The translations under genes were made by a program, and so were the position numbers. A model generated the notes under the pieces. The model worked only from the letters and a program-made list of their open reading frames with translations. It was not told the origin of the DNA and did not search any database. This document shows positions 9,155 to 33,097 of a stretch of 35,353 bases of DNA, one piece after another. The first letter of the stretch is position 1. Each line of letters begins with the position of its first letter. The stretch comes from Amoebophrya sp. A120 (taxonomy: Eukaryota > Protista > Dinoflagellata), in the NCBI GenBank assembly GCA_905178155.1, contig CAJINV010000004.1, forward strand, positions 5,231,381 through 5,266,733, written 5' to 3'.

Positions 9155-10447
9155 TTAGTTCTGCAATTTTTCCATGACCGTCCTGACCTTGCTGTTGCCG
9201 TCCTTCGGGTCCTTGCTGATTTTCGCGTCCAACAAAAACAGCTTCGCGAACGTGTCCTGTGCGTGCTCATCCACCGTGGCGCAGTGGGCCTGGATTTGCT
9301 TGGTCAGGTTCAGGGTATCCACCGCTTTCGGCACCCGCTGCGTTTTCTGCTGCTTCTCCTTCTGCGCCCGCGTCAGCCGTTCGTACATCTGCATCTCCCG
9401 CTGCTGCTGGGACAGCTCTTCCAAAGATTCGAGCAAGAGCTGCAGGTTGCGGTCCATGGCCGGGCCCGCGGAGTCCAAATCAAACGCAGCGGTGGACTGG
9501 GCGTCCATTTGAAGCATCAAGGTTTCGACCAACGGGGAACAGTGGACGTAGACCGGGACCTCCTCCAAAAGGTCGGAAGACGGGAAGTCTGCGAAAGGGT
9601 CCGTGTCCTGTCGTGTTTCATAGGGATAGAAGTGAATTTAACATGAACATCGGATAATTGTAATTCTTATTTCGGGTCAATAATTTTTTATCATACACTA
9701 CTACTAGGCGCAAGACGCACAAAGTGGTGTCCAAGTCGTAGTAAATATTCATTCTGCATTCACTTTATCATGCCAAAAGATATCTTCAAAATCATCTTAA
9801 ACTAGTACCTCGTCGATGTTCATGGTGAGTTTTTTGTGCATCGCCGCGTCTGTGAGCCTGTAGGCCTTGAAGCCGCAGGTGCCCACCTTCTGCTTTGCTG
9901 GGTCGTATACCAGAACCACCGCGGACGGGACCTCCTTCTGAAACTGGTACTGGTTCTCAATGAATGCCTCCGTGAGGAAAATACCGTGGTGCGTTGACTC
10001 GTACCTTTGGATAATTTATCATATGATGAGCATCATTTTGTCATGCAGAGACGCGAACTGTAAAAAAGGATGTGATGGTGATAATGCAATACCAATAGAT
10101 ACGCACCACCTTGTAAAATAAATGCAAAAACCTCTATACCATCCAACAGCGTTTGCGTCCCCGCGCACCTCTTCGATAGCCTTCAGAACTCCGTACTGGT
10201 ACTCCAGAAAGTTGTCCGACGGCTCTCCGTCCTGCTTGGTTTTGTAGGAAAAGCAGTTGGTAACCCGCACGTTCTTCCCGTCGTCCAAGCCCAAAAGGGA
10301 TCCGGAAGCACTGTTTGGGTACGTCTGTTTTGCGTGCTTGGCGATTCGGAGGAAGACCTGGGCATCCACTTTCAGGGATAATTTCGTGGACTTCGTCAAC
10401 TGATCGCGCTTCGCGATCGCGGCTTGAGACATCGCGGGGGCCGGCAT
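9155..10447 (-). CDS. EIF3H: Eukaryotic translation initiation factor 3 subunit H (MPN domain)
   Basis: Exons 10447-10140, 10004-9809, 9607-9155 joined by GT-AG introns. Motifs VFLRIAKH...GSLLGLD...VTNCF, DANAVGWYES, IENQYQFQ...AVVLVYDP...FKAYRL, EEVPVYVH.SPLV and LNLTKQIQAHC...FAKLFL are typical of eIF3h. Confidence 0.9.
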
Positions 10448-11552
10448 TTTCAACGTCCTCACAAGGTGATTTTTTCTAGTATTGTAAATTCAAGAAGGCG
10501 CAACAGATAGAAATTTGCAGAAATAAATGAATCCAGAATCGCAATTCAACTTATTTCTCTGAGATGAAAAAAGAGGTGGTCTCTGGTATACAAACAGACA
10601 ACCACGAAAACACAGCACCTGTTTTATGAGAGATAGAGAAATGACAGAAACGTTTTTGCTAATTTGCGTTTGAGACGCTAAGAAATTCTCACCGATAAAA
10701 AATGAATTCGGCAAAGAAATTTACTTATCATCGTACGTATGAAGCATTCTTGGATCTTTCGCAAAAAAGATTGGTGCAACAGCTTATGCCACGAAAATTG
10801 GAATGAACTTGCAATAGCGTCAAATTTCTGATCAAAACAGAGTTTTCATTTTCAAGACCTCGCCAAAAGCTGTAGCTACAGTGCTGATGGCCAAGCCAGG
10901 ACGTAGTCGTTTGACGTCTGATTCTGATACTGATCTCCAGTTTTGCAAGAACCATACAAGCGCAATTTTTAAAAAAACCAATAATTCCGCGACGTGAAGT
11001 GCGCAATAAAAATGGATCTACAGAAGCACTGGCGTGAGTGTAGTACGGCCGAGCAACATACATGCAGGAACATCAATAGAGCGGCGCTTGCGTTCAGGAT
11101 GTTCATTTGCCGAGGCCAGAAATATTTCGCATTTTGGGTGGTATTGGTGTTATTTCCCAATATGTAGTAAGTATCCTGTTTGTTGTAAGTAACTGTTTCG
11201 TTACTCATTTCTTACTTCTTGTTTTGCACAAGATTCCATTCCATTTATTTCTCCTTCCTCATCTTCGATTCGCGACGATCTGCTCTGAGTGAAAATATTC
11301 TATCACTATCCTACAATAAATTCGTGTTTGGTACGACATGGCATATGCATACTTTCCCTTCGTCTCTGTGTGTGTGATTGTGAATACTCAGCACATTGAT
11401 TGACTTGTCTGCGTTCATCTTCTTCTAGCACTTTATCGTCTACTATCTTTGAAGCGGAACTTCAAATTGAAATTAGAATTACCGAAAGAATACAAACGAC
11501 ACTGTTGTTGAAAAAACTTAAACTTGATGAAAAAACCCAAAAATCCCCACCT

Positions 11553-14500
11553 TTACTCACTATCTAGACCCCTTCTACCAAGAAATCCAGGTTCCTGGTG
11601 GTGAAGCTCGGACAACATCGCACCAGGGTGTTGTCCACCTGCCGTGGCGCTAGCGTCTGGCATCATGCCACAAGCGAGAGCGGCCGTTGTGTTATTCATC
11701 CCACTAGCTCCCGCTGCACCAGCCCCGGCCCCTGCACCGGTCGGCGAAGTAGTCTGACCGGTATTGCCACTGCTATTGTTGTTCACGACAGCAATATTTG
11801 TTTTCTCCAGGCTATCGCTCAGCAGCGCAAACATGTCTCGCACATCGTTCACCAGATTTTTCCAGGCAGCCTGTCCTCGCTTGTTATGCGCCGATGAAGT
11901 AGCTGCAGCTCCACCCGCGCCTGCATTCGGACTAGCCAGGTTGCTGCTAATATCCTTGTTAGTACCAACTCCCCGATAATTATGCGCTCCGCCGCCCGGC
12001 GACGACAAGAGCCCTTGGTTATTTTGTCCTCCGACGAGGACAGTCGCGCGCCCGCGATACTCTGATTTCCTTTTCGCTAAGCCCTCTTTCGCCTTCCACA
12101 GGGAAAAATTTTTCAGCTCCGTCACGGTTTTGCGGTTCGCGTAGCTGGTGCCCGAGTTGTTCGGAGAGGTTGGGGGAGGAAAAGTGTCCAAATCGAGCGT
12201 CCCAGGACCGCCGCCGCCCTTGTGTTGATTCGCTTTCGCCAAATGAGACTTTTTATTGCTTCTCGAGTACGAGGTTTTGTTCTTATTGCTTCCATAATTT
12301 GTTCTACTGGCTGCTGCTGCTCCATCAGATTTCGCCTTGCGGATAGCGGAAAGTTTCTGCGAAGCTTGTTGCCCTTGTTCGCCGGGAGAGTGGTCTTCCG
12401 TTCCACCTCCAACCATCATCTGGGTCACGCGCGAGCGCGTGCTGGAGGAAGAAGAAACCGCTTCGGTGACGCGGCGGACCGCCTTCTGTATCTTCGATTT
12501 CCAGGGGGATGGCTTGGTGTTGCTTGGATCATGTCCGTCTGCATTTACAGTGGCTAATCCTGCTTCATGCTTATCCCCACCAGCATCCGAGTCATCGTCG
12601 TGGTCCACATCAATGTTCGCCAAATTGCCAAACCGCAGCGTCTTTTTTGGCTTGTAAACGACCTTCTCTTTATTTTCGTCAGAAGTACTGCGAGGCAGGA
12701 GGTCTTGTTCTCTTCCTGCGGTAGTAGTTGTAGTTGTCTCCCGATTTATTGTCTTCGATGAACTGTTAACACCTGCACTTCTACTGCTTCCATGAGCCTG
12801 CCCTGCATCAAAACCATCTGTAGCTTTTGTCTTCGATCCTTTGGCGCTGCAGCTTGTTGTGCCACCTAGTCCTCCGGTCGTTGTACTAGTAGTAGTTGCC
12901 CTCTTATTATTTCCACGAGCAGGACCTTCGATGACCTTTTCCCGGTCTAGCCGCAACAAATTTTCTTCCTCCGGCACGGGTGCAAAGTACAACACGGTAG
13001 CCTCGGAAAGCCCAGAACAGACCCACTCCGCCCGTTTGACCACGTCCATACGCACTTCGCGGGAATGCGCCACTTGCACGATCTCGCGAACGAGTCCCTG
13101 CTGGAGCAGAACTGTGCGTTTTGATGAATTTGATTTGAAATAAAAGCAATCAGAACTACACTTGCAATACCTTGCTACAACGCACTTGGCGAGAACATGG
13201 TATCTATCTGTATCTTATCACATGATTACAATTACACATAATTTGGAACAACATTTCTACCAGCAGGCAACAACCAATACCTGCCTCTCCCTCTTTGTCA
13301 TTCCCAGACAGGATGCCGATCATGAACAAGACCTCCAGCAAAAACTCGTACCCATGCGTATCCCACGCGAGATAGTAGAACTGCTTCGCGAGCGGCAAAC
13401 TCTTGGCACACAGAGCCCGCCTCGCGTCGCTGTTGAACCCGAGCGACTGCAGGATCTTGGTGAGAGAAAACTCCAGAGGCGGCAGGTCCGGGTCGTGGTG
13501 ATCGACGTTGTATTGCCCCTCGTCGTTACAATCATTTCTCGACATAATTCTTGTTCTTGACACCGCACGACCACCAGGTTCTGTAGTCTCGTCCTGAGTT
13601 TCCTGTGCAAGGAAAATTCCTCCACTAGTTGCATCTCCCTCCTGCGATTCAGGATTTTTCGTTTTCATGCCGGTAACATAGTTCGTAGAGTGCCCCAGAA
13701 CGTGTTGTTTTTTCGAAGATGTTCTTGGACTACTACTGCTCGCGCAATTCTTCCCTGAAAACCGAGGTGCAGGGCTTTTCATCGTAGCAAAATCGAAATC
13801 CCCCTCATCCGGTTTCAAATTTAATACGTGGTCGCCAAATTTTAAACTCGATCCGAACCGAACGAATTGCGCGACAATTCCCTCCGCCAGACAAAAGTCG
13901 GAAAGTTTTCCGCCGCAGCACAACAACCCGGCGAGTGCGTAGGAGGCGCCGGTGGGGAGGGAGCTTAGGAGTACGACCAAGGTTTTCACAAGCTTTTTCT
14001 CTACAACAAGAGCTCCTTCATCTGGGAGAGTTGTATTGTTCTTAGTGGACGAAGAGGACATTGCTCGCGTAGTAGATGGAGTGGTTGCTGCCGTAGTACC
14101 CGTAGATCTCAGCTTCATGGGCTGCAAAAAGTGCTTCGCCCACACGGGCGAGACTAGTTGACCTCCTGTTTTGTTCGGGCACGCGCTCCTGTGGGTGTTA
14201 TTCATTTGCTGCGAAAGCGCGAGGAGGTCTGTTGGCAACAAACTCCCAAGCGCAAAGCACAAACTGCTCGTGACGGTCTTCTTGGTCGTTTTATTTGTAG
14301 CACCAGTTGTCGTGGGGTCTTGGTTTCGTTCATCTTTACTGTTATTCTCAGAAGGCGAGGATGCGGTTGCGGAAGGATCAGAAGTCGTTATCGTTTGCAA
14401 CATATCGTCGAGAGAATTAGTTCCTTCTTCCTCCGTCACCAGGAGAAGCAATTCGACAACCAAACTTAATCCTCCTAGCTCCAGCACCTTCTCGCGAAAC

Positions 14501-17500
14501 CTCGGCGAAGCGCGACTGAACAAAGCCACCGCACGCGCCGCTTCCGCCAGAAGAAAAGACGAATTTTCCGAAGCGAGTGCAGTTAGGGCGAGTTCCGAAG
14601 GTAGTTGTGGTAGAGTACTATACTGCATCCCAGTTGTTCTTTCATCTCTCTCCGCTTTCACATTTATTTCTTCCGGAAGATTGCCTGCCGTGTCGTGGTC
14701 CTCTCGGCGTCCTTGCTTTTTTGCCATTGCCTCCTGCTCATCTCGGCTCGCCGAACTACACGCTAGGTTTGTAGTTTTGGTCATTATCTCCAAAACGCGA
14801 GAAGCTAGATCGTCGCACACACATTCCGCAAACAACGCAGCGTTGTGAATGGTTGCACGGCTGCTGTCCTCGGATTTGTAGTGGAGAAACACTTTTGTTA
14901 AGCAACGCAGCGCCGTTTGTGCCACGATCGGATTTGGATTTGCCTCGTCGGGGAGGTGATTTCTTGTTGTAGTCCCGACTTGCTCCACAAGGGCACGCAC
15001 CAAAACACGAAAGTGCTGCACTGCGTCGTGCAAGAGAGACCGGTAGTGCTTTGCTTCCGCGCCGTTGTTCTGCTGCGTGGTGTTGTTGACCTCTTGATTC
15101 ATTACGACTCCACCTAGAGCTTGTATGCGCACGTCCAAATAAAGTGCGGCCTCAACATCAAGTGTTGAAGTGCCTGAACAAGTTGAATGCGATGTATTAG
15201 TAGATGCCCTCGTTGTTCTGGTAGAAGCGGTCAGATCACTCGGTAAGTAGAAGTTCTCGGCAGAAGAAGATCTTCGCTTAGTGCCAAATCGCCCCAACGC
15301 TAAACACTTCTGGAGACTTCATAAAGACTTTGCAAAAACTTTCGGTGAGCAGGGAAATGCAACACACATCGCGCCCTTACTTGGGCCCGCCGCGCGGTCC
15401 GGAACGCCGCATGGCGTCGGGGCTGCCCGCGCCCCTTGCTTCTTTGGGTTTATGGCCGGGCGCATTTCGGCCAAGAATCCGCTCGGCGCGATTTTTCGCC
15501 GCATGCTACGGCGCGCGGATGTTCGCGCCTGTTTGAGTAGCTCCCAGCCGTCAGCCGTGGCCGGCCCCGTCTCAAGCCCTGCTCGCCCCCACAAGACCCC
15601 CGGCGGCGAAGCCTCACCGGGCGCAACCCCGAATCGGCCGGCTTCATCAGCAAGCGAAGGGCTTTCCAATGGCCAACGGATTCCGGGCCCGCCGCCCTCC
15701 CGGAAAACTTTCGCTGGGCCACGGATTTGGCCAACAACTGCTACCTCCAAAAACGCCAATTTCAGAGGCGGTATAGGAACTAATAAGTGGCCCTTTTTTT
15801 GTGCGGCGGGTCAGCGAAAGTCTTGCGAAAGTTCTCCGGAGACAATCAAGCCCCTCGGCACCGCGATAGGAAAAGCGCGCACTTTTTGCGCCGACCATAG
15901 CATGGGGCGAAAAATCGCGCCCAGCGGATTCTGGCTGTTTCGGAATGCGCGCCATACCATCGCGCGAAAAATCGCGCCCAACGGATTCTGAGGGTAGTTC
16001 TCATTTTTTACATAGTGGGGGCAGGTTTCTGCTGCCCGTTCTGCCTTGTTGTTCTGCCCTTTTGTGTGCTGGCCGTGTGGCCTTTTGTGTGATTTTGCAC
16101 CCGCTACGGAAGCTCTTTCGGAAAAAATTTACCATGCGCGCCGGAAGCCCGAAGTCCACGACCAGCAAAAGTTTTTAAAAAGTCTTTTTGAAGTTCTAGG
16201 GTGTTATAATAGCTGGGGCGATTTGGCAGTAATAGAAGCGGTCAGATCACTCGGTAAGTAGAAGTTCTCGGCAGAAGAAGATCTTCGCTCGGGAAATACT
16301 TTTTCAAAAAACTTTTTTTTTTCGCCACATATGATCTCACGGCACTCCATAGACATACAAGCGGGCACGCGCAGAGTAGATCTGTCTAAGCGAGTAGACG
16401 GCTCTTGGTACTTAGCTAGCTACCTGGGACGCAAAAGAGATGCGGCCGCCGGAGTAGCCGCGGCCTTGGATTCGGTCCGTGGCGCTCTGGCCTCAAGGTA
16501 CTTGACACACAATGCCCCCACCGCGGCCTTTGTGTATGGCGCGGAGGCTCACGGTAAGTCAGCGAAATTCTGAGTGGCTCGCTTAGATGCGGCTGTCTGA
16601 AACGCGCGTGTCCTCTAGGCGTCGCCCGCCCCAGCTTTCGAAGTGCCCCAGTAGACAAATACAGATCAGGCTGAGAACTTCGGCGTCTTTGGGTTTGTTC
16701 CGGGCCAGGTTGATGTACAGATCCCCGTCTTGGCCGAATTCGCGCTGTCACTGTTCCAGCCGCATTCTTGCGAAAGCCGCAAACTTGCGGAAACAAAAAG
16801 CGCGGCCGGGCCCCCCCTTGAGGGGGGGGGTTTGGGGGACCCCCCTTCGTGGAGATATCAATGGGGAGTAGCTCTCGGCAAAGGCCCCAAAAGGGGGGGG
16901 GTTGGGGGACCCCTCGGGGGGGCCCCCGAGGACTTCGACTTGCAGCCGAGGAGGGAACTCTGCTAGCCTCCTGGCAAAACAGGCTGGGGCGAAAAACCGC
17001 ACCCCGAGACCCAGACCCGGAGGAGCGCCGCGGCCCTGGCATCACTGTCGTCAGCGCTGCCGCGTATGGATTTGAATTATTTTGAAGTTGCGCGCGGGCG
17101 CCTGTTTCTCCTGCTGGGGCGTGGGCCTGCTGCTGGCTCCAACCCGCAGCACGTCCGGCCTTGGGCTGCCCGCGTATTGCTTTCATTAAAGCGGCAGCAC
17201 TGCAGGGGTTGGCCTTCCGACATTTACGCCGGCCACGCCGGACCCAAAGCCATGACGCAGTGAGCCCCGAGCGCGGTAATCTTCTTGCCGTCACGCTAGC
17301 GAGCTCAGGATACCACTGCAGACGCTGTTGCCACGCAGTCGATCTTTGCCGGCAAAAAGCCATCTACTCACCGCGACGGGTAATTTATATGTGGCAAAAA
17401 AAAAAAGTTTTCAGAGAAAGTGTTTCCCATTGCCATATACTCGGTATGTTGAAGTTTTCTACTGCAGAAGAAGATCTTCGTATCCAACAAAAAAGCATTA

Positions 17501-20500
17501 GCGTTAGCGTTTTGAAATTTGCTGGCGAAAGCCAAATTTTTCTTGATTCTAGTTAGAGGGGTAGCTCTGTGCAGTTCAGACAGATTCGCGCAAACTGGAA
17601 GCAGTGGAAGCAGTCTCTTCGGCTGCGGAGCGGATTGGAGATAATACCGCCAAAGATGTGGGCGACGGCTCGGCCGCGCGCATGTCTGGGGCTCCACGGA
17701 CTTCCGGCTACGCGACCGCCTGACCATGCGGCGGGCCGACAAGCCGTCCTTCCTGGAGTGCCTCAAGACCTGTATTTCCCTTGCGGCTTTTGCACTCGAG
17801 AAAAGTGATCAATTTTCCAAAAATCTGGCATTAGCGTTTTTGCCCTCGGAGGTCATTTTGACCCCCCGATCAGAGGCAAATTTGCGTGGTCGCAAAAAAA
17901 AACGCTAATAAACTCATGATAGCACCGGGGAAGCTTTCCATTTCTTGGATTCACAAAAAACGCTAATAAACTCATGATAGCACCGTGGAAGCTCTCGCGA
18001 AAAAAAAAAGCGAATTTTTATAAGCTCACCCTTTCTGCACGCTATCCAGAGTTTATTAGCGTTTTTTAGGTGTTGACATAAATTTACACTTTCTGCACGC
18101 TATCATGAGTTTATTAGCGTTTTTTTTGGCGACCACGCAAAGTCGCATGATTTTGACGAGAAATCTTGCCGTTTTTTGTTGGTCCTCCCGAGAACGCTAA
18201 TGAACGCCGGGCCTGAACTCAAACCCGCATTACAATCTGCCGCATTTTCCTTCAAATCAGGCAAAACACCGGCGACCTTGGTCGCGACTCTTTTGCGTGC
18301 CGAGAAGGGCGCGCCAGTTAGGCGCTGCGGAGCATGGAGCTGAAGGGCCTGGCTGTCACATACGGGACCGACGAGGGCTGCTCCGCCAAGCTGCTGCGGC
18401 GGGTGGGGCGCTTGTTTGAATGATATTGGATACTATTCCTTCGTCTGAACGGAAAGTAGCTAACGTGACATGCAAAATCAAAAAAAATTTCGTTTGTTCG
18501 AACAAATCTCAAAACGCTAACGCTAACGCTAACGCTAATAAGACTACTCGGTGAGTTGAAGTTCTCGGCAGAAGAAGATCTTCGCAAAATTTTCATCCGC
18601 GCCAGCATCTGCGCAAAATGTAGGAGCTCGAAGACAATTTGACCTGCTTGGGCTGATAAGCACGAAAAAGGCCTCGGAAGGGGTTGTTGCAGCAGGTTTT
18701 TGGAAGTTTGCTCCGATGCAATTCCCCGCCTCTCCGCATCAGGGCCACACAGAGCGAAAAACCTACCCGCCCTGAAGACATTGGCGCGCGCACTGATATC
18801 AGACACGAGGCTGCTCTGCTGCATTTGGAGAGAGGCCAAGCCGTCTTACAAAGAGCGAAGCAGTAACGAAGGCACTAGAGCAAGTTCGCTACTTTGCTTG
18901 CTCGAATCTCTGATCCGAAAAGCACACCCGTGCCTCCGTGAAGGAAAACCGTAGCGGAGCAAGTTTGCTGGTGATGCATTTTGCTCCGATGGAGACACGG
19001 ATGCGTTTTCCGGATCAGGGATCTGGGCGATGTTTTCCTCGATTTCGTCACCAAAGTTGGGAGCAATGCCCCCAGGCTCGCGTGAGTTGCCCTGATGGAC
19101 CTCTTCAGGTTGTTAGCGGTCCAAAGGCACTCAAGGCCCAGGGCTTCGATCCGAAAAACGCATCGCTGTCTCCATCAGAGCAGATTGGACGAGATCCAAT
19201 GTTGTCCATATACATCTAACAAGAACCTCGAAAAAAAACTGCTCCGATGCGTTTTTTTCTGAAGCGAATCACGATGGAAAAAAATGCATCGGAGCAAAAT
19301 GTCGGATACCCCATTCTTGAACCCCCAAGGACGACCCCCAAAGGCTATTTCCCGGAAGGCCGGCACTTGCCCTCATGGTTGCTCGGATGCAAATCCAAGA
19401 CCTTTGGCTGGCCGTCAACGCATCGGGGCTAGCCGCACTCAAACGGCGCGTGAGGCTCCAAGCAGAACGAAAGCGCCGCCGCCAGAAAGAGAGCCGGGCG
19501 GAGAATGTCAGAGAGGCACTGGGGCAAAACACACTGAAACCAAGCGTAAGAGAAAAACCGGGGCCAGGGTAAAACACAGCCCAGCGTAACGCGCTCTAAT
19601 TCTGGCGCCCAACCGCGAAGGCCACCAATGCCGGCCATAGCGCTAGACTCAGGCCGGTTGAGGTGTCTTGCGGTCAGCCGTCCGAGACGCGCCACAAAAA
19701 ACATTGCAAATTGGCATGCAACAACCCCTGCAGACACACCCTCGGACCCGGTCGGGCGACGGCGTGAGTACCATGCCCGCTGAGAAATTGGCATCGAAGC
19801 ACTCGAAGCTACGGACCGCCAGGGCCGGGGATTTCTATAAGCCAAGGTCCCGGAGGTCCGAAAACAGCCGCAGCATTTATGTGCCAGCCGTGCGTACTCT
19901 CAAGCGCTTCGGGAATCCGAGACACTACCTTTTGCGCAGATGCAGACAGGAATGCATTTTTCAGAGGATTAAACTCGGTAAGTAGAAGTTCTCGGCAGAA
20001 GAAGATCTTCGCGTGGTCCTGCTATGCTGCAGCAGTTTAGCGATCACCAGGTCGGTGTCCGGAGAAACAGGAAAAAAATTAGTATCATCCGGCGACGGTC
20101 GTGCTGGAATTATTGATCCGCATCCGATCGGACGTCGAGTGGGATTATTGATGAGAAGTACCCGCAGTGCGGAAACTACGGAGGCGAGAATTGTATCCGC
20201 TAAATGATCCTCTAGTTTCAACGTGTTCTCCAAGTTTTCAATCGCAAAAACACGGATGCTCGTGTTCATGGCTTGTTGTAGTTCATCTTCTTCGCCTGGA
20301 ATGGATTTTGGTAATTCGCCACTATCAAGAGCAGGACCTCCGTCAACATGTGGAGCTCGGACCACTACTGCGGCTAAAAGTTGCGACAGCAGTTGCGACA
20401 CTGTGCTGATAGAGTTGTTGCAACAGTGAAGAAAACGCTTTTTCATCTCCGCTGTTCTTGGTGTTCTTGCACCTCCTGCTTTCGACAACTCGAGGTCCTG

Positions 20501-23500
20501 CTCGTGCTCTCGCTTGGACTTGGAGGAATTTGAACTACGACCGGCTCCTGCTGGTTGAAAATAAAAATGTGCGCCAGCTTGACCATTTTTATCGCCGCTG
20601 CTCTCCCGCTTTATCGTTGTGCTAGTACTGCTCGTGGTGTAGTAGTCGTCGCGCTTGCCCCTTTCATCTCCTTCTACTTCCATGGCAGAAGTAGATGCTG
20701 CAGGCCCTCCTCCTGGAGCGGTACAGCCACTACTATTCATCGGCATCGGGTCGATATAATCCATTCGCGTTTCCAGTAGCCAGCAGTGCGCCGCACAGAG
20801 GAGTTGCAGAAGGATTGGTGAAGGGGATAAGAAGTGCGGTTGTAGTTCCGGTGCGCCGGACGAAGCTGCATTCAACGGACGAGGGTTGTGTGGCGACTGC
20901 ATCGCTGGTTGTTGTACACCAGCATTATCTGGCAGCTGCTCTAGTACTACTTCATGCGCACTATCTTGTTCAACACCTTGATGATTCGAACTCTTCTTCT
21001 TGACTACTGATTCTTGAACTGCACGGTAGTTTTCCGGTACCGGGCCAAAGCTTTCGAGAAACTCAAGCACGATTTGCAAGAACCAGGCCGGGTGTAGTGG
21101 GTCATTTTCCGTAAGGTAGAAAGGGCCTTTGTTATCGGGGACGGGGAGTTGTGTAGTGCTCTCGCGGGAGAATTCAAGATCACTCTCTGTTAAACGATTT
21201 GCCGCGGTGCTGCTTCTCGAAAATGAATAAATTCCCGGCATCATGGGATGGCTCGCAGTGCCAGATTTATTACTTTCCCGCCCGCTACTGTCGTTCATCC
21301 AGCCGCTGTCACCATTATACAGCGCAGAATTCACTTCATCGCTCCTTTCCTGTTGCAGGGACGAAGTTTCGCGGCTCCAATAGTATGTCTGGCACCGGTG
21401 CAGCGCAATCAGGAGTAGGTCCACCGGAAAGGGCTTCGTCGATGAATTAGTAGAGGCTTGAGTGCTCGAATTATTGCTCTTTCGAGTTGTTGGCAGCGTG
21501 GTTGACGACGAGGCAGATTTTCGCATGTCCTGGCCTGGCGGTCCAGGTCCTATACTACTTCCTTCTGGAGCAGGAGCTGCCAACATAATTTTTAACCCGT
21601 CGCACACCACTTGCTGCACGGCGTATCCAAACCTCCGTTGCAGCCGAGACAAAACGATCAGCAGCGACTGCAGGGCGCGCAGCACGTCTTTTGGGATGAA
21701 AAGATCCTGATTGTAGGATGAAGCCCCCACGCGGTGTTGATCCGGCACAGCGCTTTCGCGATTCGGGAGGGCAGAAGTTGTGCTAGGACCTGTAACAGCA
21801 GCACCGCAGCTCTTACGCTGCTGCTCGGTCAGCGTCAGGTTGCTAATGTTACAACTATTTACGTCGTAGTTCGCACTGGAACCAGAACCATCCATTTTCC
21901 TCGTGCTTCTGCCACTTTTAGAAGAAGTAGCTGTTGATGTTCCCGCTGCGACGATTTTGGAGTTACGTGTAGCTGTTCTACTTCCAATCGCTATCGACGA
22001 AGAGAGCCTCGCTGAAAAGCGCGTCTTCCTGTCGACAACATCAGACCTGTTGATAGTATTACGTTCTTTTTCATCATCGGCCCCGCCGTCGCACAGGAGT
22101 GCACCTAAGCTCACCTCCCCGGTGATTTCTTCCCGGAGCTTTAAAATTGCGACGCAAATCCCCCGGGCAAGCTCTACGGAGGTCGAAGCATCTAGCTGCG
22201 CGACGGCGTCCTCCAAGACGCAAGACGACAGGCGGAACAGCAGGTCGGGGTCGTTGGTCCGCGTTCCGTGGTGCAATAAGTCGGAAAACAGAGGGACGGA
22301 CAACTGCAGCAACTCAAAGTCGTTGCACTGCGCCGCCTTTTCCCACAACAGCAGCAGGGGGTCGCGCAGCGCGGACTCGCAGAGGATATCTGACTGGGCG
22401 AGGTACTCAATCAGGTGCACGAAGGTCTTTCGGTTTTCGGCCAAAAACGCCGTTCCAGACGAGCCCACACGTAGTAAAACGCACCACAGTTTTATCCCAA
22501 GAAAAAAACTTTGAGTCTTAGTGTAGGTCTTGAGGGAAAACATAAACAGCATCATGAAAACTGATTTGCATTTTCTGCATCACAGACTCACTTACACTTA
22601 CACAGTTTTTTTCCAACGATAAATTTCTCCTGCAAACGCAAACCCGAGAGCTGCTCCGCGGACGAAGAATTGTCGGAGTCGGAGGTAGTTTCGGAATCGC
22701 TAGTTTCGCCGAAATTGTTTTTCCTGTCGTTTTCTTCGGAGAAGCTGCTGATATTGTCCTGATCGTCGTGGTTTTGCTGTTTATTTTTGGTACTACTTTT
22801 ATTTGCGAATTCCGCCGCGAGTCTTGCCGGGTCGCGCTTGAAGTTTTGTGAGCTGGCTGCAGAAACTTCCTGCACATTTTGATCGCCATCACTAGAAGGA
22901 CATCCTCCAAAGGCTTCTAGCAACGTCGGAGCCGCTGCTCCTGCTGCAGCAGCTCCATCCATGTAATTGGAGTTCTTCCCTTCGGCTGAGTAGACTCCGT
23001 CCTGCTGCCCTGCGGTAGTTGCAGTAGTACTCATAATTCCAGCCAAAACCACAGAACCGGCACCTGCTCCGGTCGGCGACGTGGCAGGCGATTGCTGACT
23101 TGATGTTGTACCACCTCCTGCACTTTTCAGCGCCGCCACGGGCTGCGCTACGCTCAGGGTCGCCCGGAAGGTGCGCCGCCGCGCCAGGCTTTTGCCGAAC
23201 GCAGTCGTCGTGGCGCTGGCCACCGCGGTATTTTTGTCACCTCCAGCACTTTGCTGGTGTTCGTCGTCGCTGTTCAATTCTCCTTCTTGTTCTTGCCCGT
23301 GCAAGAAATAGTCGGCCGAGTGTTTCAAAAACCCCCGCACCACCTCGCAGAACTCCTTGACGTCCGAAAGAATCGCTGGTGTACGGAGAAACGCCGCGAC
23401 CGAGGGGATTTCGGCCAGCGTGCCCAGCACATGGACCGACTGAATCGCCAAGTCAATTCGGTCCAGCTCCTGCTCGTCGGAGCGAGCGGCGGCATCCTGC

Positions 23501-26500
23501 TCGTTCAGCTGCCTGCTCGTGGTTGATAGTTCTTGCACTACATCCGCGGCCCCACCTTCGTTCAACACCTTGTTCATCTTACAAACCGCCGGCACGAGCT
23601 GCGGAAATTTGCGGCGCAAGTAGCCCTGCGTTCCGCGAACGATTTCGATCAGCGTTTTGGCCGCTGCGCAGAAAAACGCCGGTTCTAGATGGTGCATTTC
23701 GGAATCTAGCAGGTCGAACAGTCGCTGCCAGCTGTCCTGCAAAGACAAGTGGATGTGCGGCAGCTCGGTGTGCTGGAGGGTCAACAGCGTCTCCAATATA
23801 GCGCAGCGAGAGAGAAAGGGCAGCTCTTGGAAGCGAACCGGTAGATTTTGTTCATGATCTCCCTGCACGGACGTGGACGCTGCTGCTGCACTTTGGGATG
23901 AATAAAATTCCTCGGTCAGGAACTTCCGGACCTGCAGAATACACTTCCCCTGCAGGCTCGGCGAGCTGTCGCGAGCCAAGGAGGCGAGGGCGAGCAGACC
24001 CGGCTCGGAGATAATTTTTGAAAACGAAGGTGCTTGTTGGATAAGTAGAGGATCATGTTCTACTTGTTGAACATCTTCAAATAAACCTCCTACGGAATCT
24101 TCGTCTAAATTTTCTTGCCCCCCCGCGGCCTCGGTCGAAGTGTGACGCGCCGCGGCGCCAACAACCAAAGCCTGCGACCCGGTTGGCACCGTCGCCCTGG
24201 ATGATGTTTTCAACAATGGATATGATTCTCGACCACCAGCATCTTCGTTCTCTTCGTCGGCCAGGAGGCTGCTGCGCGGGCTCTCCGACTCGTCACCTTC
24301 TCCGATGATCGACAAGTAGTCCCGAAACCGCGGCGAAGTTCCGTCGTCGGTGGTGCCATTATTGAATTGTTCATCCGCGGAAGAGCTACCTCCATGCGCG
24401 TAGTTGAAATTATTTCCGTCCGTTCGGCCAGCCGCTTTTTTATGCATCTCACCACCAGACACCGTAGAGTTGTTCTTCTCCTCGTGCAATAAGTGGTCTG
24501 ATTCCAGATGCGACTCTTGATCTTTGGCCAGCTGCACGAAGCCTTTGCTACCAGCTCCTCCGTACCTCTTTCGAAACGCGTCTATCCTGGGTGCCAATCG
24601 GCTCCAGAGGTGGTGCTCGATGTCCGCGGGAGGGACATGGGAGAAACAGGCCTTCGCCCAGTCGATGTGATTACCCCGGGCCAGGGTCCACAGCGCCAGG
24701 ACCGCCATTTTGCGGACCTGCGTGGTTGGGCTGTTTGTTAAGAGGAGAAGCACGGATATCGGCTCCAGGTGTCCGAGCCAATTTTCAAACAGCGATGAAG
24801 AAGATCCACTCGACCACGTGCCGACGACGTGGTGGGACGAAATCATTTGCGTCGAGGTAGGAGACATCTTCACGGGTCCTGAACAAGAAGATGTGCTGGA
24901 AGTCAGAAGTCCACTGTTATCCCACGAGGTCGTGGGACCTACGACACCGATGCTGTTCTTGTTTCCACTACATGATCCATTCGTCATGTGCTTGGTTCCA
25001 AAAACACCTCGCCGGGTCGTTCTTGTTCCACAAGCTCCTGGTCCTGCTGCGGTCGTAGTAGTCGTAGCAGCTGTTGAACTACCGTTGCTGCTCACCAGCG
25101 CCAGCTGCAGCAAACATTCCACACACAGTTGCTGCACCTCCGCGGTTATCCTGTGCAAAAGTATCGTACTCGTATAAATGCAGGTCTTGCATTACAAATT
25201 TCTTTGTCAAGGCAAATCAGCATTACAAATTTCATTTCTCATGCTGAGAAAATTTGTAATGCATTTATACGAGTACGATACTTTTGCAGTTCATAGCGGT
25301 GGCCGTGGGCGCGAGCAGAACCAGGGCGTCGACGCCGCGGTGCTGGACGCACTATTACATTGAAAAATGCCCCCACCCCCGACCTTGGGAGAATTTGTAT
25401 TGCAAACCTTTCCAAATGAAACCCTCACCCTCTTGCATCTATCAGCATCACAGGTTTCCAATCGTGAACAGCAAGAATGTATTGTATTACAAAAGACCCC
25501 AGCAAAAGCGGCGCTTGTCATGCAAGCGATGCGATACACGCCTAGACCCTGCATCGGAAAGATTCATACTCCTTTCATGCATGACAAAACGTCTTCATTT
25601 GGAAACTTCGCATCACAAATTTTTACAATTTAAGGGGTGGGGGGCATTTTTCACTGTAATACGCACTCCTGGTTATCCAGGAGGAACAGGGAATGCAACA
25701 GGAACAACGCGTCCCGCTGCTCTTCCTCGGTCCCGGTTGCGGCGGCGTGGAGCAAGGGCGGATACTTGTTCGCTGAGGGCGACAGGGACGGCGAAGCAGC
25801 AGTCTTGGTGACACTGCCGTCAACTGTTCCTGGTGATGTGGCTATACCTGCTGATGAGGATGCTGTAGTTGTACTGAGACTTTTTTTACTACTGCTCCTT
25901 CCAGCTGCCGTCTCGCTTGAAGTACTCCGTGGAGGTGCACCAGCAACGTGTTGCCCAGAATGGACGTCCCCATCAAGTCGGTGCAGAAACGTGTGCGTCG
26001 CGTGCTCGCGAATTTCGTTTCTGAGCAGAAATTGGCCGACAAAAGCCTCGAGCTCGCCGTCGTTTCGCCGGCTCGCGAAGGTGCCAGAACCTGTGCCCGC
26101 ATGATGATCCTGGGTACCCGCCCACTGCGAAAAGGCCAGATCGATGATGTTCGCGATTTCTGGATGGGGTTGGCTTAAAACAAAACTGGGGCTAGAAGTT
26201 CTTGATGTCGTACTGCTGTCGATGGCAACTACATCCTGTTGAGAATTATTGCCCCCTCCAGCTGCCTTGTTGCCCGCGCTGTTCCTGCTTGATGCTGTTC
26301 CAGAAGCTTTGGTTCCTCCTGAAGTACCATTTCCCCCGGTCGCATAACTTTCACCGGCGCTAGTTTCTGACGCAGGTGCACTTGATGATGATGTTGCTCC
26401 GGCACTACTATTGTTGAGGGCACTTCTAGTACCTCCGCTTGCTCGTGAAGTTGGTCCAGAAGAACTGCTACAAGAACCTCCTCCACTCGGAGCTCCTGCA

Positions 26501-29500
26501 GTATCCCCGACCACGCCCTTACGCTTGTTGAAGGCGACGAAGCTGACCGCCTTGCGCCACCGCCGGCTGGCCCCGCTGCGGGACTTTTGAAGATGAGTTC
26601 CTCCTTTTTCCCCTGCATGCAGCTGCATCTCGTCCTGCTCCTCCTCGCGCCGGGCGGCGCTGGAGCTCGCCAGCAACAGCAGGCTGGCCCGGACCAAGGG
26701 CAAGAGGCGGAGGCCCGCGGAGGAGGAAGTGCGCGCGACGTTCAGCAGCGTCCATGCACAGTTGCGAAACATCCGCCGCCGGAGCACCGGCGTTTCCCCT
26801 TCCAGGTCCGGCCGGGTCGGTTTTGTGATTGTACTCGTCATGTTGCTGGAAGCTTGCTGAAGATGTTGCGTCGCGTTGTTTATGTTTTCCCCACCTGGTT
26901 GCTCGTCTACAGCTCCGTCAAGATCCTGTTCGTGGTGCTCGCCAGGTGTAGTTGTAACACTCGCTGCTCCTTCCATCGTCGTTTGTGCATGAAGTGTTTG
27001 GCTGCCAACCCCTCCGTCTTGCGATGCACGCACAGAAGTGGAAGACATTGACATAATTCCAGCCCCCTGTAGTTGTTGTACCTGGTGTACCCCCCCGGCA
27101 CCATGATGAAAACTGGGTGGTAATTTGACGATTTCGTGCAGCCCCGCATGCACCGCGTTGGAATTCAGCATGGTTTTCACGTTCAGCTTGTCCTGCGCCA
27201 GGTTTGCCAAGCACCCGGTCAACCAGACTCGCGCGGGCAGCGTGCTCTCTCGCGCCAGGCAGTTCGCGATGATGACTAGCAGCGGAAGCTCGATTGTAGT
27301 GCCGCCCGGCTGGTGCCCTAGTTGTAAACTACCTGAGTTGCCGCTCGTGCCTGCCGTGCCAGATCCGGCTTGCAAAGAACTGCTCATACTTGCTTGGAGC
27401 TGCGGGCCGGACAGCTGCGCTTTCTGCCCGGCTACCAGTCCTCCTGCTCCCGGCTGATCATTCTGCAGCTGCACGTGCGACCCGGTCTTGTGGACGCACG
27501 CGGAGGTGGCGCTGGTGAGCGCACAAAGCCCTGCGGCCAGAAAACGCTGGCAGAACGGGTGGGTCCGCCCAGTGCGCCCGAGAAGCTCGCAGATCGGCTC
27601 CAGGTAATCTCCGAGCTTCTCGCTGGTTTCCGCAAAAAGAGACATTCGCGCGATCGCAGCCGCAATCGCGACCAGCAGGCCGTCCCAAGAGGCGCGACGC
27701 ATCATCATGTTATTGTTGGAGGTGCTGGACGAGGTTTCGCTGCTGTCGAGATTTATTTGAACTACGGAAGTCAAAGGAGTTCTTGCACTGTGACCAAGAT
27801 GTTGATCAACGGGCGTACTGTAGTAATTGTCAACACCGTAGTTTATTTTCGGAGTACCAGCACAGGCCGTTGGGTCCGTGACGACCTGGAGGTGATGGGG
27901 TGCTCCGATGGAGGTGGTCCCCGCGACGTTCATGCTATGATCCGAGAAGCAGATGACGCTGGCATTTCGGCTCTTCAGGTCTTCCACTACCTGGGCGACC
28001 AGTCTGAAAAAGGACACGAGAACACCCTTTTGCAGTAGCATTTGCCGTATGAACTGCAAAAGTGTCTGGGTCTGGAAGAGTGCAAGTTTGTCGCGCTTGT
28101 CTGGCATGACTCGAGAATCTGTGTTGCATAGGCGCGAAAAGGCCCTCTTGCCTGTCACGCGAAAACGCAGTTTGCCATGCGGAATACGTAAGACATGGCA
28201 GCCAAAAAATTTGTCATGCATAGCTGCGCACTGCAGTGCGTCTTCCATTTACTTTTAGCATTACAAGTTTCCAGACCCAGACATATTTGCAATCCATATG
28301 CCGTGCGAGGTCGCACGCACTCAGGGTCGCCAGCACCTGGGGCAAAAACGTACCGCTCGCGCTTCCTGGATGATGCGCTCCCACGTGGTCGACGCCAACG
28401 GTCGTATTGGTTGTACCTGCTCCACCGTCGCTCTTTACAAACCGCAGGAGCGGCTCACCGGCGACATGCATGAACATCTTGCCGTCGAGTGCATCCCGAA
28501 TGACCAACAGCAAGTATTTCGCGACCAGCGCCCGGTCGCGGTGCTTCCGCGAGCCCAGTCGGCGCGCCAGCTCCTCGAAAAACGCAACCCGCTTCACCGT
28601 CCAGCTGTGACTAGAATCAGAATTTGTATTGAGGTTGTTATGGTTTTGGTTAATATTGCTCGCACTCGTACCCAGCTGATACTCAGTGGTGCCAGAAAAC
28701 AGCTCCAAAAGGTCTGCTTGATGGAGGTTCAACATCTCCAACTGTTGATTTGTTCCCTTCATCACACTTGTTGCCCCGCCCGCGACGGCCCGGTTTAATA
28801 TACCAGGATTATCCACTGGCGATATTCCACCTAGCCCGGCGGCCTGACCTCCACCTAGTGGCAATCCTGCTACGCTCTGCCGCATCGAGCGGCGATGGTG
28901 GAAGGACTGCGACCGCTGGTAGCTGATCGCCGGCTTGGATGTTGAAGTAGACTTGGTACTAGTTGTACTTCCCGCCCCGGCTGTTGTTCCAAGCGGCTGG
29001 AACGAGCTGGAAGACGACAAAGGCGGGCCACCTGCTCCGGCTCCTATAGAGCCGGATGCTGCGTAAAAATGATGATCCCGCCCGACATCAGCACCCGCTG
29101 CGCCAGCACTTCCTCCCATGTTGAGGACATGATTGTACTGGTGCGCAGCCGTACCAGCATGCTGCGGCAGCCCCGAGGTGCGAAATACTAAATTGCTCCC
29201 CCGGGTGGTGGAGGACGTCGAAGAGATCGCAGTAGTTGCAGCATGATGTTGGTAGTCTGCAAGAATGCCGTCCCCAGGAGACGACGAGTCAGTTTTTGCG
29301 CGGAAGATTGCGAGCAGCTCTTCGTAGTCGTGGTCGACCGAGCCAAGCAGGTAGTCCAGGTAGGCTTCCTCCTCCGAAGTGCCGTCCCGTTCCCGTTTCC
29401 GGACCAAATTGCGGTCCAGATCTGCCATCGACGCGTTTTTCTGCGTCTGGAAGGAGTACCCCAAACCCAGTGCCCCTTTCCACTCGCCGGGGGGTAGGCT

Positions 29501-30648
29501 TGCCAAGCGTTGCTTCCAGGTCTGCCCGAGCAGCGAACTCGCCTTCCCCGCATCCCGGGCGGAGGGATAGGGAAAATCGTCCCCCAAGGCCTCGCTGACA
29601 TCCTCTTCCGTTTCCTCGGAGACGGGTGGGAGAAAGGGATTCAGCCGTGCGGGTCTTTATCGTGAGGAAAAATCCCCCCTCACCATACTCACAATGGAAA
29701 TTTGTGATGCTGCTCTGTGGCCACAAATCAGCTTTGTCTTGCATATGAGGCAAATGGGAGCCATGTGGTGCAGTCCACAGCCAAGTTGTCATGCGCTCTT
29801 GCCTACCGCAAAGCTGTCTGTCATGCCTGAGTGCTAGCCTTTTGCAGACCTAATCAGGCTTTGGAAGTGCCTGCAAGCGCTTGCTGCAATACAGCGCTGA
29901 TTTGTCGTGTACACAAATCCAGCAACAGAAATTTCCGTTTCACTATGTCTGTGCAGGAGGATTTTTCTGTTTGTTAGTCTTCGCTTGATGGTTATCAAAT
30001 GTAAAAATGTCTAGGTCTGGAAGAATGCATGTTTGTCATGCTTGTGTGGCATGACTCTTAAATCTGTCATGCAAGTTACCCAAGAGCTCCATTTTTCTCT
30101 GATGCAGAAACGCAGTTTGTCATGCAGAATAGGCAACACCTAGAAGCTCAGAAACTTGTGATGCTGAGCCAGCATGTCTGGCCTCATCATGATACGCCAC
30201 CCAGCATCACAAGTTTCCAGACCCAGACATTTTTACATTTGATAATGGTCTCGTCTCCGACCCGGTCCTCGTCCACGCTTTTGCGCTTCTTCGCGTTATA
30301 TCAAATGCAAATATGTCTGGGTCTGGAAATTTGTAATGCAAGAAAGGGAAGAGTGAGCGCACTGTAATGCGCTGCCCAGCATGACAAGTTTTTCCGTGGC
30401 TCAGAGTTGCGCTTGCGCGCTCCGCATGAGAAACTGCGTTTTTGCATGACAAACAAGAAGAGCTCTTCGCGGGCACGCAATACAGAGTTTAGAGTCATGC
30501 CAGACTAGCATGACAAATCTCGCAATCTCCCCGACCCAGACATTCTTGCACTTGTGCATACGCTAGAAGTACTTGCGGTGGCACTTGCGGTCGTGGAGGC
30601 TGCAGCGGTGGAGGCTGCAGCAGTTTCCCGGGGCTGCTTTTGCGACAT
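11553..30648 (-). CDS. Very large (~4,200 aa) ARM/HEAT-repeat-like protein with long low-complexity insertions
   Basis: Six large same-strand ORFs join in frame after removing 6 introners, the 4735-bp cassette array and GT-AG introns (13112-13280; ~22510-22591). ARM-like helices: LLAEAARAVALFSRASPRFREKVLELGGLSLVVELL, WLTGCLANLAQ, RNCAWTLLNVAR, VRKMAVLALWTLARG. Probable start MSQKQPRE at 30648. The 3' end may splice further (GTGAGT donor-like site at the stop). Confidence 0.7.
15278..16232. mobile_element. Cassette 1: non-autonomous TIR element flanked by a 56-bp direct duplication
   Basis: ~65-bp imperfect TIR TTAGTGCCAAATCGCCCC...AAAGACTTTGCAAAAACTTT / AAAAGTTTTTAAAAAGTCTTT...GGGGCGATTTGGCAGTAA, abutting the repeats exactly. 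Internal inverted/direct repeats GAAAAATCGCGCCCA(G/A)CGGATTC. Confidence 0.85.
16289..17438. mobile_element. Cassette 2: non-autonomous TIR element
   Basis: ~42-bp TIR GGGAAATACTTTTTCAAAAAAC(T)nCGCCACATAT (16291-16332) vs ATATGTGGC(A)nGTTTTCAGAGAAAGTGTTTCCC (17387-17428). Central G/C-run hairpins at 16800-16930. Confidence 0.8.
17481..18545. mobile_element. Cassette 3: non-autonomous TIR element
   Basis: TIR ATTAGCGTTAGCGTTTTGAAATTTG...TTTTTCTTGATT (from 17497) vs AATCAAAAAAAATTT...CAAATCTCAAAACGCTAACGCTAACGCTAACGCTAAT (to 18539). Internal 2 direct + 2 inverted copies of AAAAAACGCTAATAAACTC.TGATAGC. Confidence 0.8.
18586..19972. mobile_element. Cassette 4: non-autonomous TIR element
   Basis: Imperfect TIR ...GCATCTGCGCAAAATGTAGGAGCTCG vs CGAGACACTACCTTTTGCGCAGATGC...; dispersed internal TGCTCCGATG / CATCGGAGCA motifs. 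Confidence 0.75.
25147..25295. mobile_element. Introner, family B
   Basis: TIR core TGCAAAAGTATCGTACTCGTATAAATGCA perfectly inverted, TAT/ATA ends; TSD GCGGT; internally similar to 7800-7955. Removal gives LAPTATA-EVQQL. Confidence 0.93.
25353..25661. mobile_element. Introner, family E
   Basis: TIR TATTACATTGAAAAATGCCCCCACCCC / GGGGTGGGGGGCATTTTTCACTGTAATA; TSD CGCAC. Removal gives DNQEC-VQHRGVD. Confidence 0.92.
28048..28298. mobile_element. Introner, family A
   Basis: TIR TATGAACTGCAAAAGTGTCTGGGTCTGGAA / TTCCAGACCCAGACATATTTGCAATCCATA; TSD TGCCG. Removal gives CDLAR-QMLLQKG. Confidence 0.93.
29658..29976. mobile_element. Introner, family F (degenerate TIR)
   Basis: TATCGTGAGGAAAAATCCCCC / GGAGGATTTTTCTGTTTGTTA; TSD GTCTT. 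Removal gives TIKRR-PARLNPF in frame. Confidence 0.78.
29993..30244. mobile_element. Introner, family A
   Basis: TIR TATCAAATGTAAAAATGTCTAGGTCTGGAA / TTCCAGACCCAGACATTTTTACATTTGATA; TSD ATGGT. Confidence 0.92.
30299..30560. mobile_element. Introner, family A, inverted relative to its neighbours
   Basis: TIR TATCAAATGCAAATATGTCTGGGTCTGGAA / CCCCGACCCAGACATTCTTGCACTTGTGCATA; imperfect TSD CGTTA / CGCTA. Interior matches the reverse complement of 28048-28298. Confidence 0.88.
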
Positions 30649-31328: not shown

Positions 31329-31856
31329 TGTTGGTCATGGAAATCGATCCCGCACACACGTAACACGATCGCCCCAAATGACGCCTGCTCCTCAATGAAA
31401 TGACAGTTCTGAATGACCTGAACTAGCTAGATCCTTAGGGAAATGGTCAGAATCTATCTAGATCCTGAAGGAAACTCGTCACCATGTTCCGCGAATCCCC
31501 CAAATACTACGAAGGCAAAGCCATCAGGATCGTAGTGAAATGAATGGACTCAGCTCGGTCCAGACGTTCGGAATGGTCGCCCTGGGGGACTTGACTCCCG
31601 CCAGGGTCGAGCACCAATCTGAGCAGGTTGAGGAGTGGACTCCCATGCTGTTTGGCCACTTGACTCTGACCAGGTTTGGTCCATATGAATGTGATGAATT
31701 TGGATGAATTGAACCTACAGGATGTAACGCAGCAAGAGACTTGCGTCACTTGCTTGCTTACTTGCAATTGAGAGAATTCGTCGAACTGCTGTTGATAACG
31801 AGCTCAGTGGAGCAAACGTGTGTAAGTGTGTGCGAGTGTTCTCAAGTCCACTAACA
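31329..31856 (+). repeat. Putative 5' LTR
   Basis: Begins TGTTGGT and ends ACTAACA (6/7 inverted match, TG...CA), 60 bp before the gag ATG. The 3' LTR is outside the window, so this is unverified; no clear TGG-type PBS. Confidence 0.45.
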
Positions 31857-31915
31857 CTACGTTACGCCTTGAGACTCAAACTGGCTCTTCTAGTCAGATA
31901 AGTTTATTTGAAATA

Positions 31916-33097
31916 ATGGGCCAAGAGGCAAAGCTGGTGGAGAAGTTGTCCAGCGCGCAGGACTGGCGCGTCTGGCATCGCGGAGTCACGAACGAGGTTT
32001 CTCGCCTCGGACTCCAGGAGTATTGGGATAATCGTCTTGCTGGTAACCCTCCGGGGATTCCGCAGGCGAACAATACTGCCAATAACGCGACCCGGGAGAA
32101 GTGGCGCGACCTGAGGGATGCCATCTACAAGTCGTGCACCGGGTCCGTGTCCACGTGGGTCAACAGTCAGCACTACATCAACGACGACGCTGCGCAGCTG
32201 TTCATGCGTATTCGTGATGTTGGTCGCTTCAATGTTGCCTCCCGTGACCAGCAGCACATCAAGACGTCCTCGATCGACGCCATGCATTTCGACAACCGCG
32301 ACGCGCCGAAGGATGCTCCGACGTTCCTGGCCCAGATCCACGACTTAATGGCGATGGCGCCGAGTGTCTACGTCCCGGAGCCCGGGCGTCCGGCTGAAGA
32401 TCAGCATGTCAAGAACATTCTGGACAAGTTGCCCAAGATGTTCGCGTCGGCCTTCCGCCAGACCATCGACCGCTGCGTGGACGAGTCCGATCACATCACC
32501 CCCCAGCAGATCGGCGACCGTCTCGAGAAGAAGCTCGCGCAGCTGGTCAAGGAAGGTTCGTACAAGATCGAGAATCCGTCCTTCGGCAAGGCCTTCCCGG
32601 TCGTCGAGGAAAAGACGAAGAAGAAGAAGGGAAACAAACGTCAGAAAGATGATGACGATGAGGAGCCGGACTCCGCTGATGATGGTCAAAATGCTGCTTC
32701 TGGCAAGGTGTTCTCGGCGAAAGCCTTGAAACGCATGAAAGCCAAATTGCGCAAGCAGACCGAAGCGAGTGTCTTGGCTGCCCATGGCCTGCCCCCGAAA
32801 GCTAACGCCAAGGGCGGAAGTGGCCAGAAAGGTGGCAAGACTGGTCGGAACCAGAGCACTCCCTACAACACTGTGACCAAACCCAAATGCTGGATCTGTA
32901 ACAAGGAAGGCCACAAGGCTGACCGTTGCTACTGGAATCCTAACAAAGGACAAGGGAAAGGTCAGTGGGGTGGTGTCTGGGGAAACCAGCATCCGCAGTG
33001 GTGTCCGCCGGTGAACCAGAACCAGACGAACAACCAGAATCAAGGGCAGGGAGCCGGTGGAAAGCAGGGTGGTTGGGTCTGGCAAGGACCAGCCTGA
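31916..33097 (+). CDS. gag: Copia Gag with CCHC zinc knuckle
   Basis: KLSSAQDWRVW N-terminus; CWICNKEGHKADRC (CX2CX4HX4C); ends at TGA 33095-33097. Confidence 0.85.
   Translation: MGQEAKLVEKLSSAQDWRVWHRGVTNEVSRLGLQEYWDNRLAGNPPGIPQANNTANNATREKWRDLRDAIYKSCTGSVSTWVNSQHYINDDAAQLFMRIRDVGRFNVASRDQQHIKTSSIDAMHFDNRDAPKDAPTFLAQIHDLMAMAPSVYVPEPGRPAEDQHVKNILDKLPKMFASAFRQTIDRCVDESDHITPQQIGDRLEKKLAQLVKEGSYKIENPSFGKAFPVVEEKTKKKKGNKRQKDDDDEEPDSADDGQNAASGKVFSAKALKRMKAKLRKQTEASVLAAHGLPPKANAKGGSGQKGGKTGRNQSTPYNTVTKPKCWICNKEGHKADRCYWNPNKGQGKGQWGGVWGNQHPQWCPPVNQNQTNNQNQGQGAGGKQGGWVWQGPA

Follow-up and report, generated by a model that had tools for sequence, protein, structure and literature searches.

Transposon-like introns stacked between in-frame copies of one coding segment in a low-complexity protein gene of Amoebophrya sp. 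A120

The window analysed here, a whole stretch of 35,353 nucleotides (nt) of the dinoflagellate Amoebophrya sp. A120 (contig CAJINV010000004.1), holds on its minus strand a host gene (11553..29656) for a large low-complexity protein, inside which a segment termed R alternates with four inserted cassettes, C1 to C4. The R-C1-R-C2-R-C3-R-C4-R arrangement, described earlier from the letters alone (hereafter the sequence-only reading), was confirmed, with five R cores located and only 14-35-nt matches, at chance level, found between the cassettes. The gene is annotated in pieces, with P0001 (CAD7945849.1 of Amoebophrya sp. A120, a 99% match to the upstream exon) upstream of C1 and P0003 downstream as separate proteins. 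Its reading frame suggests one long gene from ~29656 to ~11553, as 2114 codons are open once three ordinary introners are removed and ~1580 codons are open through the array; deletion of 4735 base pairs (bp) fuses the flanking open reading frames into 1546 codons on the minus strand, just as had been proposed. The protein is weakly ARM/HEAT-like (Pfam ARM_ARMC5, E 0.044; HEAT, E 0.064; both below cut-off). Neither an ortholog nor an empty allele was found in longer-protein searches (0 matches); a representative-protein search returned only P0001 and an unrelated repeat protein (E 2.5e-5), a near-length protein search P0003 only, and the R pattern had 0 matches in metagenome contigs. At ~21095-21120 (minus strand) the open frame has seven residues absent from P0001, by a 21-nt micro-intron or an annotation slip.

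The five R copies, all on the minus strand, share an exact 17-nt core (core ends at 15276, 16287, 17480, 18584 and 20011) that has no further occurrence within the window. R1 (15222..15277) is a 56-nt copy that begins the downstream exon, with a putative acceptor at 15272; R2 (from 16233) equals R1 across these 56 nt plus one chance base, and R5 (19973..20012), which closes the upstream exon, is identical to R1 across 40 nt. R3 (17439..17480) has diverged by three substitutions and three inserted bases and R4 (18542..18585) by two substitutions within a 39-nt core; R3 and R4 have changes in common that are missing from R1, R2 and R5. The sequence-only reading had described a repeat of ~40 bp; the duplicated target length in fact varies (56, 42, 44 and 40 nt). 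Every R contains the 10-bp palindrome GAAGATCTTC (15266..15275, and also at 16277, 17470, 18574 and 20001), which lies 1-2 nt away from the insertion point common to the cassettes. The R region folds no better than its shuffles (z -0.9), and no separate 5-bp duplication surrounds any individual cassette.

The cassettes measure 955 (C1), 1150 (C2), 1061 (C3) and 1387 bp (C4), and the two ends of each can pair (duplex -33 to -46 kcal/mol; four of four, each with 0 of 500 shuffles as good). The earlier statement that each carries its own terminal inverted repeats (TIRs) directly after R stands for the pairing of the ends, and is too strong for their position: only C1 (15278..16232, 955 bp, TTA..TAA) has two clean ends abutting R, C2 and C4 lack ~7-10 nt at the left that other copies of their families have, and the tips of the two C3 ends are mismatched. 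In X1, a DNA-like sequencing run, the summed depth of C2-C4 was 85-459 versus 42-43 in the flanks, with many variant contigs, so these are multicopy families; the C1 interior is single-copy and only its end is shared elsewhere. As the sequence-only reading had stated, the cassettes encode no enzyme: none of their 50 frames of at least 60 codons matched Pfam, no transposase being found and none of the DDE type of IS1549/IS1634, and no tyrosine or serine recombinase appeared among the scanned window frames. Rfam gave five matches, all hairpin microRNA families far under their gathering scores; the C1-end pattern had three matches of only 19 nt in viral contigs, taken as chance in view of no further similarity, and the C4-end pattern had 0 matches in prokaryote genomes. 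Inside C3 lies a nested 270-bp palindrome (17876-18146) of 58-bp units related to C3's own ends, and its right end (18513-18541) is a run of a 6-bp unit. The C1 and C4 ends begin with TTA, a motif reported for strain A25, and the ordinary introners of the window begin with TAT, as reported for A120.

Repeats of near k-mer length, together with the fact that no single record spans the array, could point to alternative alleles chained through R during assembly. This was judged practically negligible: the R copies differ in sequence, a single X1 unitig runs from R1 through C1 into R2 (15249-16262) with 0 differences and at flank depth (43.1, against 43 and 41.9 in the flanks), and an RNA-like contig orders R2-R3-R4-R5 as the window does. 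X1 may be the source of the assembly. We conclude that the array is real and no assembly artefact.

That contig comes from X3, a data set classed as RNA by the tool's guess, in which the exons are covered and the C1 interior is empty. Its joints (16290/17439, 17476/18542 and 18571/19972) skip C2, C3 and C4 separately and keep R2, R3, R4 and R5 in genomic order, as micro-exons of 30-58 nt; all three joints are in frame (1 in 27 by chance), none of them occurs in X1, and they are not among the joints listed for X5, another data set. Thus C2, C3 and C4 are spliced out one by one, and the inner R copies are kept as in-frame micro-exons, namely R2 (16233..16290, 58 nt), R3 (17439-17476) and R4 (18542-18571, 30 nt). 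The corresponding introns, all on the minus strand, are C2 (16291..17438, 1148 nt, non-canonical, sense AT..CC), C3 (17477..18541, 1065 nt, sense TT..AA; the element at 17481-18541 plus 4 nt of R3) and C4 (18572..19971, 1400 nt; the element at 18586-19972 plus 13-14 nt of R4, with a joint movable by 2). In agreement, residues 1178-1230 of the annotated P0001 consist of four repeat units; its C2 acceptor lies 6 nt further in than that of X3, making R2 a 51-nt exon (16233-16283), and P0001 then reads into C1 and stops. This is the main point that the sequence-only reading had missed: the cassettes are introns, and the inner R copies are exons.

For C1, depth was 0 over 15355-16047 in both X3 and X5, and its splicing was modelled by a k=31 simulation of 42 C1 models. 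A 75-nt X3 record was reproduced by three of the 42 and by none with C1 retained; the cut 15272/16233 is the sole one of the three in frame and also fits the break points of the long X5 records. A 52-nt X5 record was reproduced by no C1 model, which was ascribed to missing coverage. C1 is therefore likely spliced too, at 15272/16233, the predicted intron (15273-16232) comprising the element and 5 nt of R1. Once the four introns are spliced out, the mRNA exceeds that of a single-R allele by 156-162 nt, and the protein likely gains ~52-54 residues of tandem repeat. In addition, one X3 record at 16180-16233 places a C1-like end in a contig of depth 425 that continues into non-R sequence, a relative in a highly expressed transcript.

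The reference for these introns is given by ordinary introners of the same window. All of 10 hand-picked ones show TAT..ATA at their ends and a 5-bp repeat, which is exact in 8 and has one mismatch in 2, and removal of an ordinary introner with one repeat restored the frame in three of three tested. Such ends and short repeats have been published for A120 (Farhat et al. 2021, PMC7789003; here and below, literature statements refer to the available portions of the cited papers), and flank alignment scores were 6-9 for ordinary introners versus 26-56 for C1-C4. The C1 and C3 introns, in which 5 and 4 nt of R, respectively, are removed along with the element, match the putative 5-bp rule of ordinary introners. 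The C4 splice site is displaced to 13-14 nt inside R4, by an amount similar to the 8-10-nt shortening of the left end of C4, and C2 fits the rule less neatly, with one acceptor at the hairpin base and the other 5-6 nt into R2. A coding tandem repeat that arose first, with ordinary introners settling later between its units, would likewise leave a tandem repeat in the mRNA and would suit a low-complexity protein in an introner-rich genome (PMC7789003). Its 56-, 44- and 40-nt units are, however, not multiples of 3 and would break the frame without introns, the element ends coincide with the repeat borders, and no cassette has a 5-bp flanking duplication of its own; as three of the four units are affected, the repeat could not have coded before the introns were present, and this order of events, already largely refuted, is very improbable.

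Copies of the cassette families were then traced outside the array. Among the 39 loose ends of X1, the flanks were judged on the nine shown, and here three rows at C2 and C4 left ends and one at a C1-like end carried unrelated flanks other than R. A metagenome-contig scan with the C4 end yielded one locus, L001, from another assembly that holds the same ordinary introner families as the window. L001 carries a C4-family copy 99% identical across 856 bp in a different gene and reading-frame context, relative to which the left end of C4 is ~8-10 nt short. The cassettes are thus not tied to R, and their families occur elsewhere without it, contrary to the expectation of the sequence-only reading that such copies always lie beside R-like sites. 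It had also named, as a finding that would speak against its model, copies elsewhere with ordinary short target duplications and no link to R; the copies elsewhere indeed had no link to R, while the duplication at L001 is long rather than short. A dedicated recombinase or integrase that integrates cassettes site-specifically at R, in an att-like or CRISPR-like manner (CRISPR, clustered regularly interspaced short palindromic repeats), could account for one insertion point used four times, for the adjoining palindrome and for the repeat-spacer look. Family copies lacking R and a repeat of varying length argue against this, as do cassettes that are multicopy TIR elements with no enzyme inside and an R that is single-locus coding sequence at single-copy depth, so that the proposed CRISPR- or integron-like system was given up as scarcely probable.

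At L001 the element has an intact left end, next to which a 76-nt stretch ends; beyond the element this stretch is found again, 79 nt long (73 of 76 matches, one 3-nt gap). Short direct and inverted copies of the flank have taken the place of the right part of the element, among them an inverted one of 23 nt at the joint. Within L001 759-1740, this inverted 23-nt filler pairs with the flank ~80-100 nt past the element, and a hypothetical splice at this hairpin plus 5 nt would delete both the element and the second duplicate without breaking the frame (chance expectation 1 in 3). In this one case, then, the long duplication is associated with the element or the way it inserted, and not with R. 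All five insertions seen with both flanks have long, variable duplications, but four of them are the array itself.

Taken together, we consider it somewhat better than an even bet that introner-type TIR elements were inserted repeatedly at one junction, each duplicating 40-56 bp of target through break and repair. Each new element would have entered where R meets the left end of the resident element; the presumed order of arrival is C4 first, C2 second, C3 third (into the R next to C4) and C1 last. After a break at this junction, one transposase-made element end would be joined at a fixed point, and the other would either be joined at a distance of 40-56 bp or be attached in the course of gap-filling, with the target copied anew and the end of the resident element nibbled. 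Splicing would cut near the base of the end-to-end hairpin, normally removing the element and a single 5-nt duplication; where the duplication is long, the remainder would stay in the mRNA, so only frame-keeping events would survive. The joints that later events would have reopened (R2/C2 and R4/C4) carry small deletions while the newest, R1/C1, is clean, and the changes shared by R3 and R4 fit an entry of C3 into an already diverged inner copy. From the sequence-only reading, iterative integration survives as repeated insertion with a long target copy, and R as an att-like repeat tied to the cassettes does not.

The sharing of differences between R3 and R4, set apart from R1, R2 and R5, could also mean that single R-C-R alleles from different lineages were joined through R by unequal crossing-over, R3 and R4 stemming from a diverged allele. 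Direct repeats do promote unequal exchange, but 40-56 bp is short for homologous exchange, the scars at the inner joints are not predicted, and four long-duplication insertions at one base are still needed; such exchange explains the order of the array and not its origin, and we regard it as improbable.

Alternatively, the transposases of these families may make staggered cuts in the target, tens of bases apart on its two strands, perhaps preferring AAGATCTT 3 nt from the cut; long duplications of variable length would then be their usual product, with R regenerating its own target. The clean ends and perfect 56-bp repeat of C1, the long duplication at L001 and the bacterial elements IS1549/IS1634, which make 8-514-bp repeats by no accepted mechanism (PMC2266710), agree with such a long stagger. 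So does another C4-family flank in X1 (the loose end at 18586), where AAGATCTT stands 3 nt before the element end, which is also its spacing in R on the assumption that C4 originally began at the same point as C1; the 8-mer has 0 occurrences in 30,523 other bases. Ahead of this copy lies a 12-bp palindrome whose AAGATCTT core is that of R. Yet AAGATCTT is found in one of three other C4 flanks (neither that of X5 nor that of L001) and was a post hoc observation, either a single enzyme or four sharing the same oddity would have to handle four unrelated types of end, and the left-end scars of C2 and C4 and the filler of L001 suggest repair. We therefore lean modestly towards break and repair, and leave to the long-stagger enzyme a minor share of the probability.

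Several observations weigh against serial insertion with break and repair. The two clean ends and perfect duplication of C1 are explicable by a plain long-stagger transposase without repair, and the single other copy with both flanks, L001, is truncated and from another assembly, and its duplication could be a later accident. No test run explains why four families chose one base position, and R1, R2 and R5 are identical yet R3 and R4 differ by 5-15%, contrary to a simple clock. An empty allele or ortholog was looked for in protein and metagenome-contig searches and not found. Moreover, the splicing record in X3 is one contig, RNA by guess only, which probably shares its RNA data with the annotation and is then not independent of it, and their C2 acceptors lie 6 nt apart.

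By the prevailing view, an introner either does not alter the mRNA or lengthens it by a few codons. In the array, introners have produced a coding repeat of five units, with exons of 30-58 nt strung between non-canonical introns of 1-1.4 kilobases (kb); if this is general, it would tie intron gain to the rapid evolution of proteins that has been reported for Amoebophrya. Although this is less likely than not, a class of ~1-kb TIR introners in Amoebophrya might routinely insert with 40-80-bp duplications and re-target the recreated site, hairpin-guided splicing making micro-exons, so that transposition would generate protein tandem repeats genome-wide. The locus also offers a natural experiment on site choice by a U1-less spliceosome: splice sites are shifted in the two introns whose ends are shortened, and the same letters serve as exon in one copy but as intron in another.

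Elsewhere in the window, retrotransposon-like frames at 31826-35353 (plus strand), gag-like with a zinc-knuckle look and then pol-like, are broken by a stop and frameshifts; their only Pfam match is SH3_retrovirus (E 0.0019), and they have no similarity to C1-C4. An eIF3h-like gene (JAB, eIF3h_C) lies at 9158-10489 and an EF-hand protein gene interrupted by ordinary introners at 5584-6501, both on the minus strand. At 1472-1570 a 63-bp in-frame tandem duplication stands inside a 656-codon frame without an inserted element.

Among known systems, CRISPR arrays and integron cassettes have the same repeat-insert-repeat look and repeated addition at one site. CRISPR arrays have a constant repeat and short unique spacers, and integron cassettes always carry or adjoin their att repeat. 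In the array, by contrast, the repeat length varies (40-56 nt), the 1-1.4-kb inserts are multicopy transposon-like introns with relatives away from R, the repeats are exons, and no integrase was found among the scanned frames. Non-autonomous TIR transposons like miniature inverted-repeat transposable elements share with C1-C4 the TIRs without a transposase; their duplication is short and family-specific, instead of long and variable as in four of four cases in the array and at L001 (one of one). In alternative transposition of Ac/Ds and hybrid element insertion of P, transposon ends border a flanking direct duplication, as here, although these involve two nearby ends of one family, kb-scale duplications and an 8-bp target repeat, in place of tens of bases and unrelated families (PMC3744419). 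IS1549/IS1634 resemble the array in their long, variable target duplications beside TIR elements; they are bacterial, autonomous and not introns, stacking is unreported in the available portion of PMC2266710, and the likeness is drawn without a sequence link.

The closest features are those of the Amoebophrya introners, which fill the genome and, like C1-C4, are non-canonical introns with pairing ends, non-coding and genome-repeated, with splice sites near the hairpin base (PMC7789003). In the array, the ends are non-canonical and RNA-supported for C2-C4 and indirectly for C1, they pair in all four, and C2-C4 are genome-repeated. Unlike the published introners, whose direct repeats of 3-5 nt were searched up to 8 nt and whose intron set was restricted to 40-1000 bp (PMC7789003), the array has 40-56-nt duplications and three longer cassettes, its mRNA gains repeats rather than being restored, and four elements occupy one site. 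Other published introner duplications measure 3-9 bp (PMC9860276; PMC11282704), 3-8 nt in Polarella (bioRxiv 2020.10.14.339549) and, in 22 of 58 A120 rows, 2-5 bp or none (PMC12130899); since published methods examine short flanks, long duplications could have been missed. Two 16-nt end motifs were absent from the 12 of 14 supplement files of PMC12130899 covered, and stacked long-duplication introners building coding micro-exon repeats were not found in searches of openly available full texts. In-frame lengthening of a protein, as in the array, is described for introners of Aureococcus sp. (Gozashti et al. 2022, PMC9860276; 2025, PMC12130899), where an 8-bp duplication added 12 bp (four codons), whereas in Amoebophrya sp. 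A120 each event added 27-57 nt, four times over at one site.

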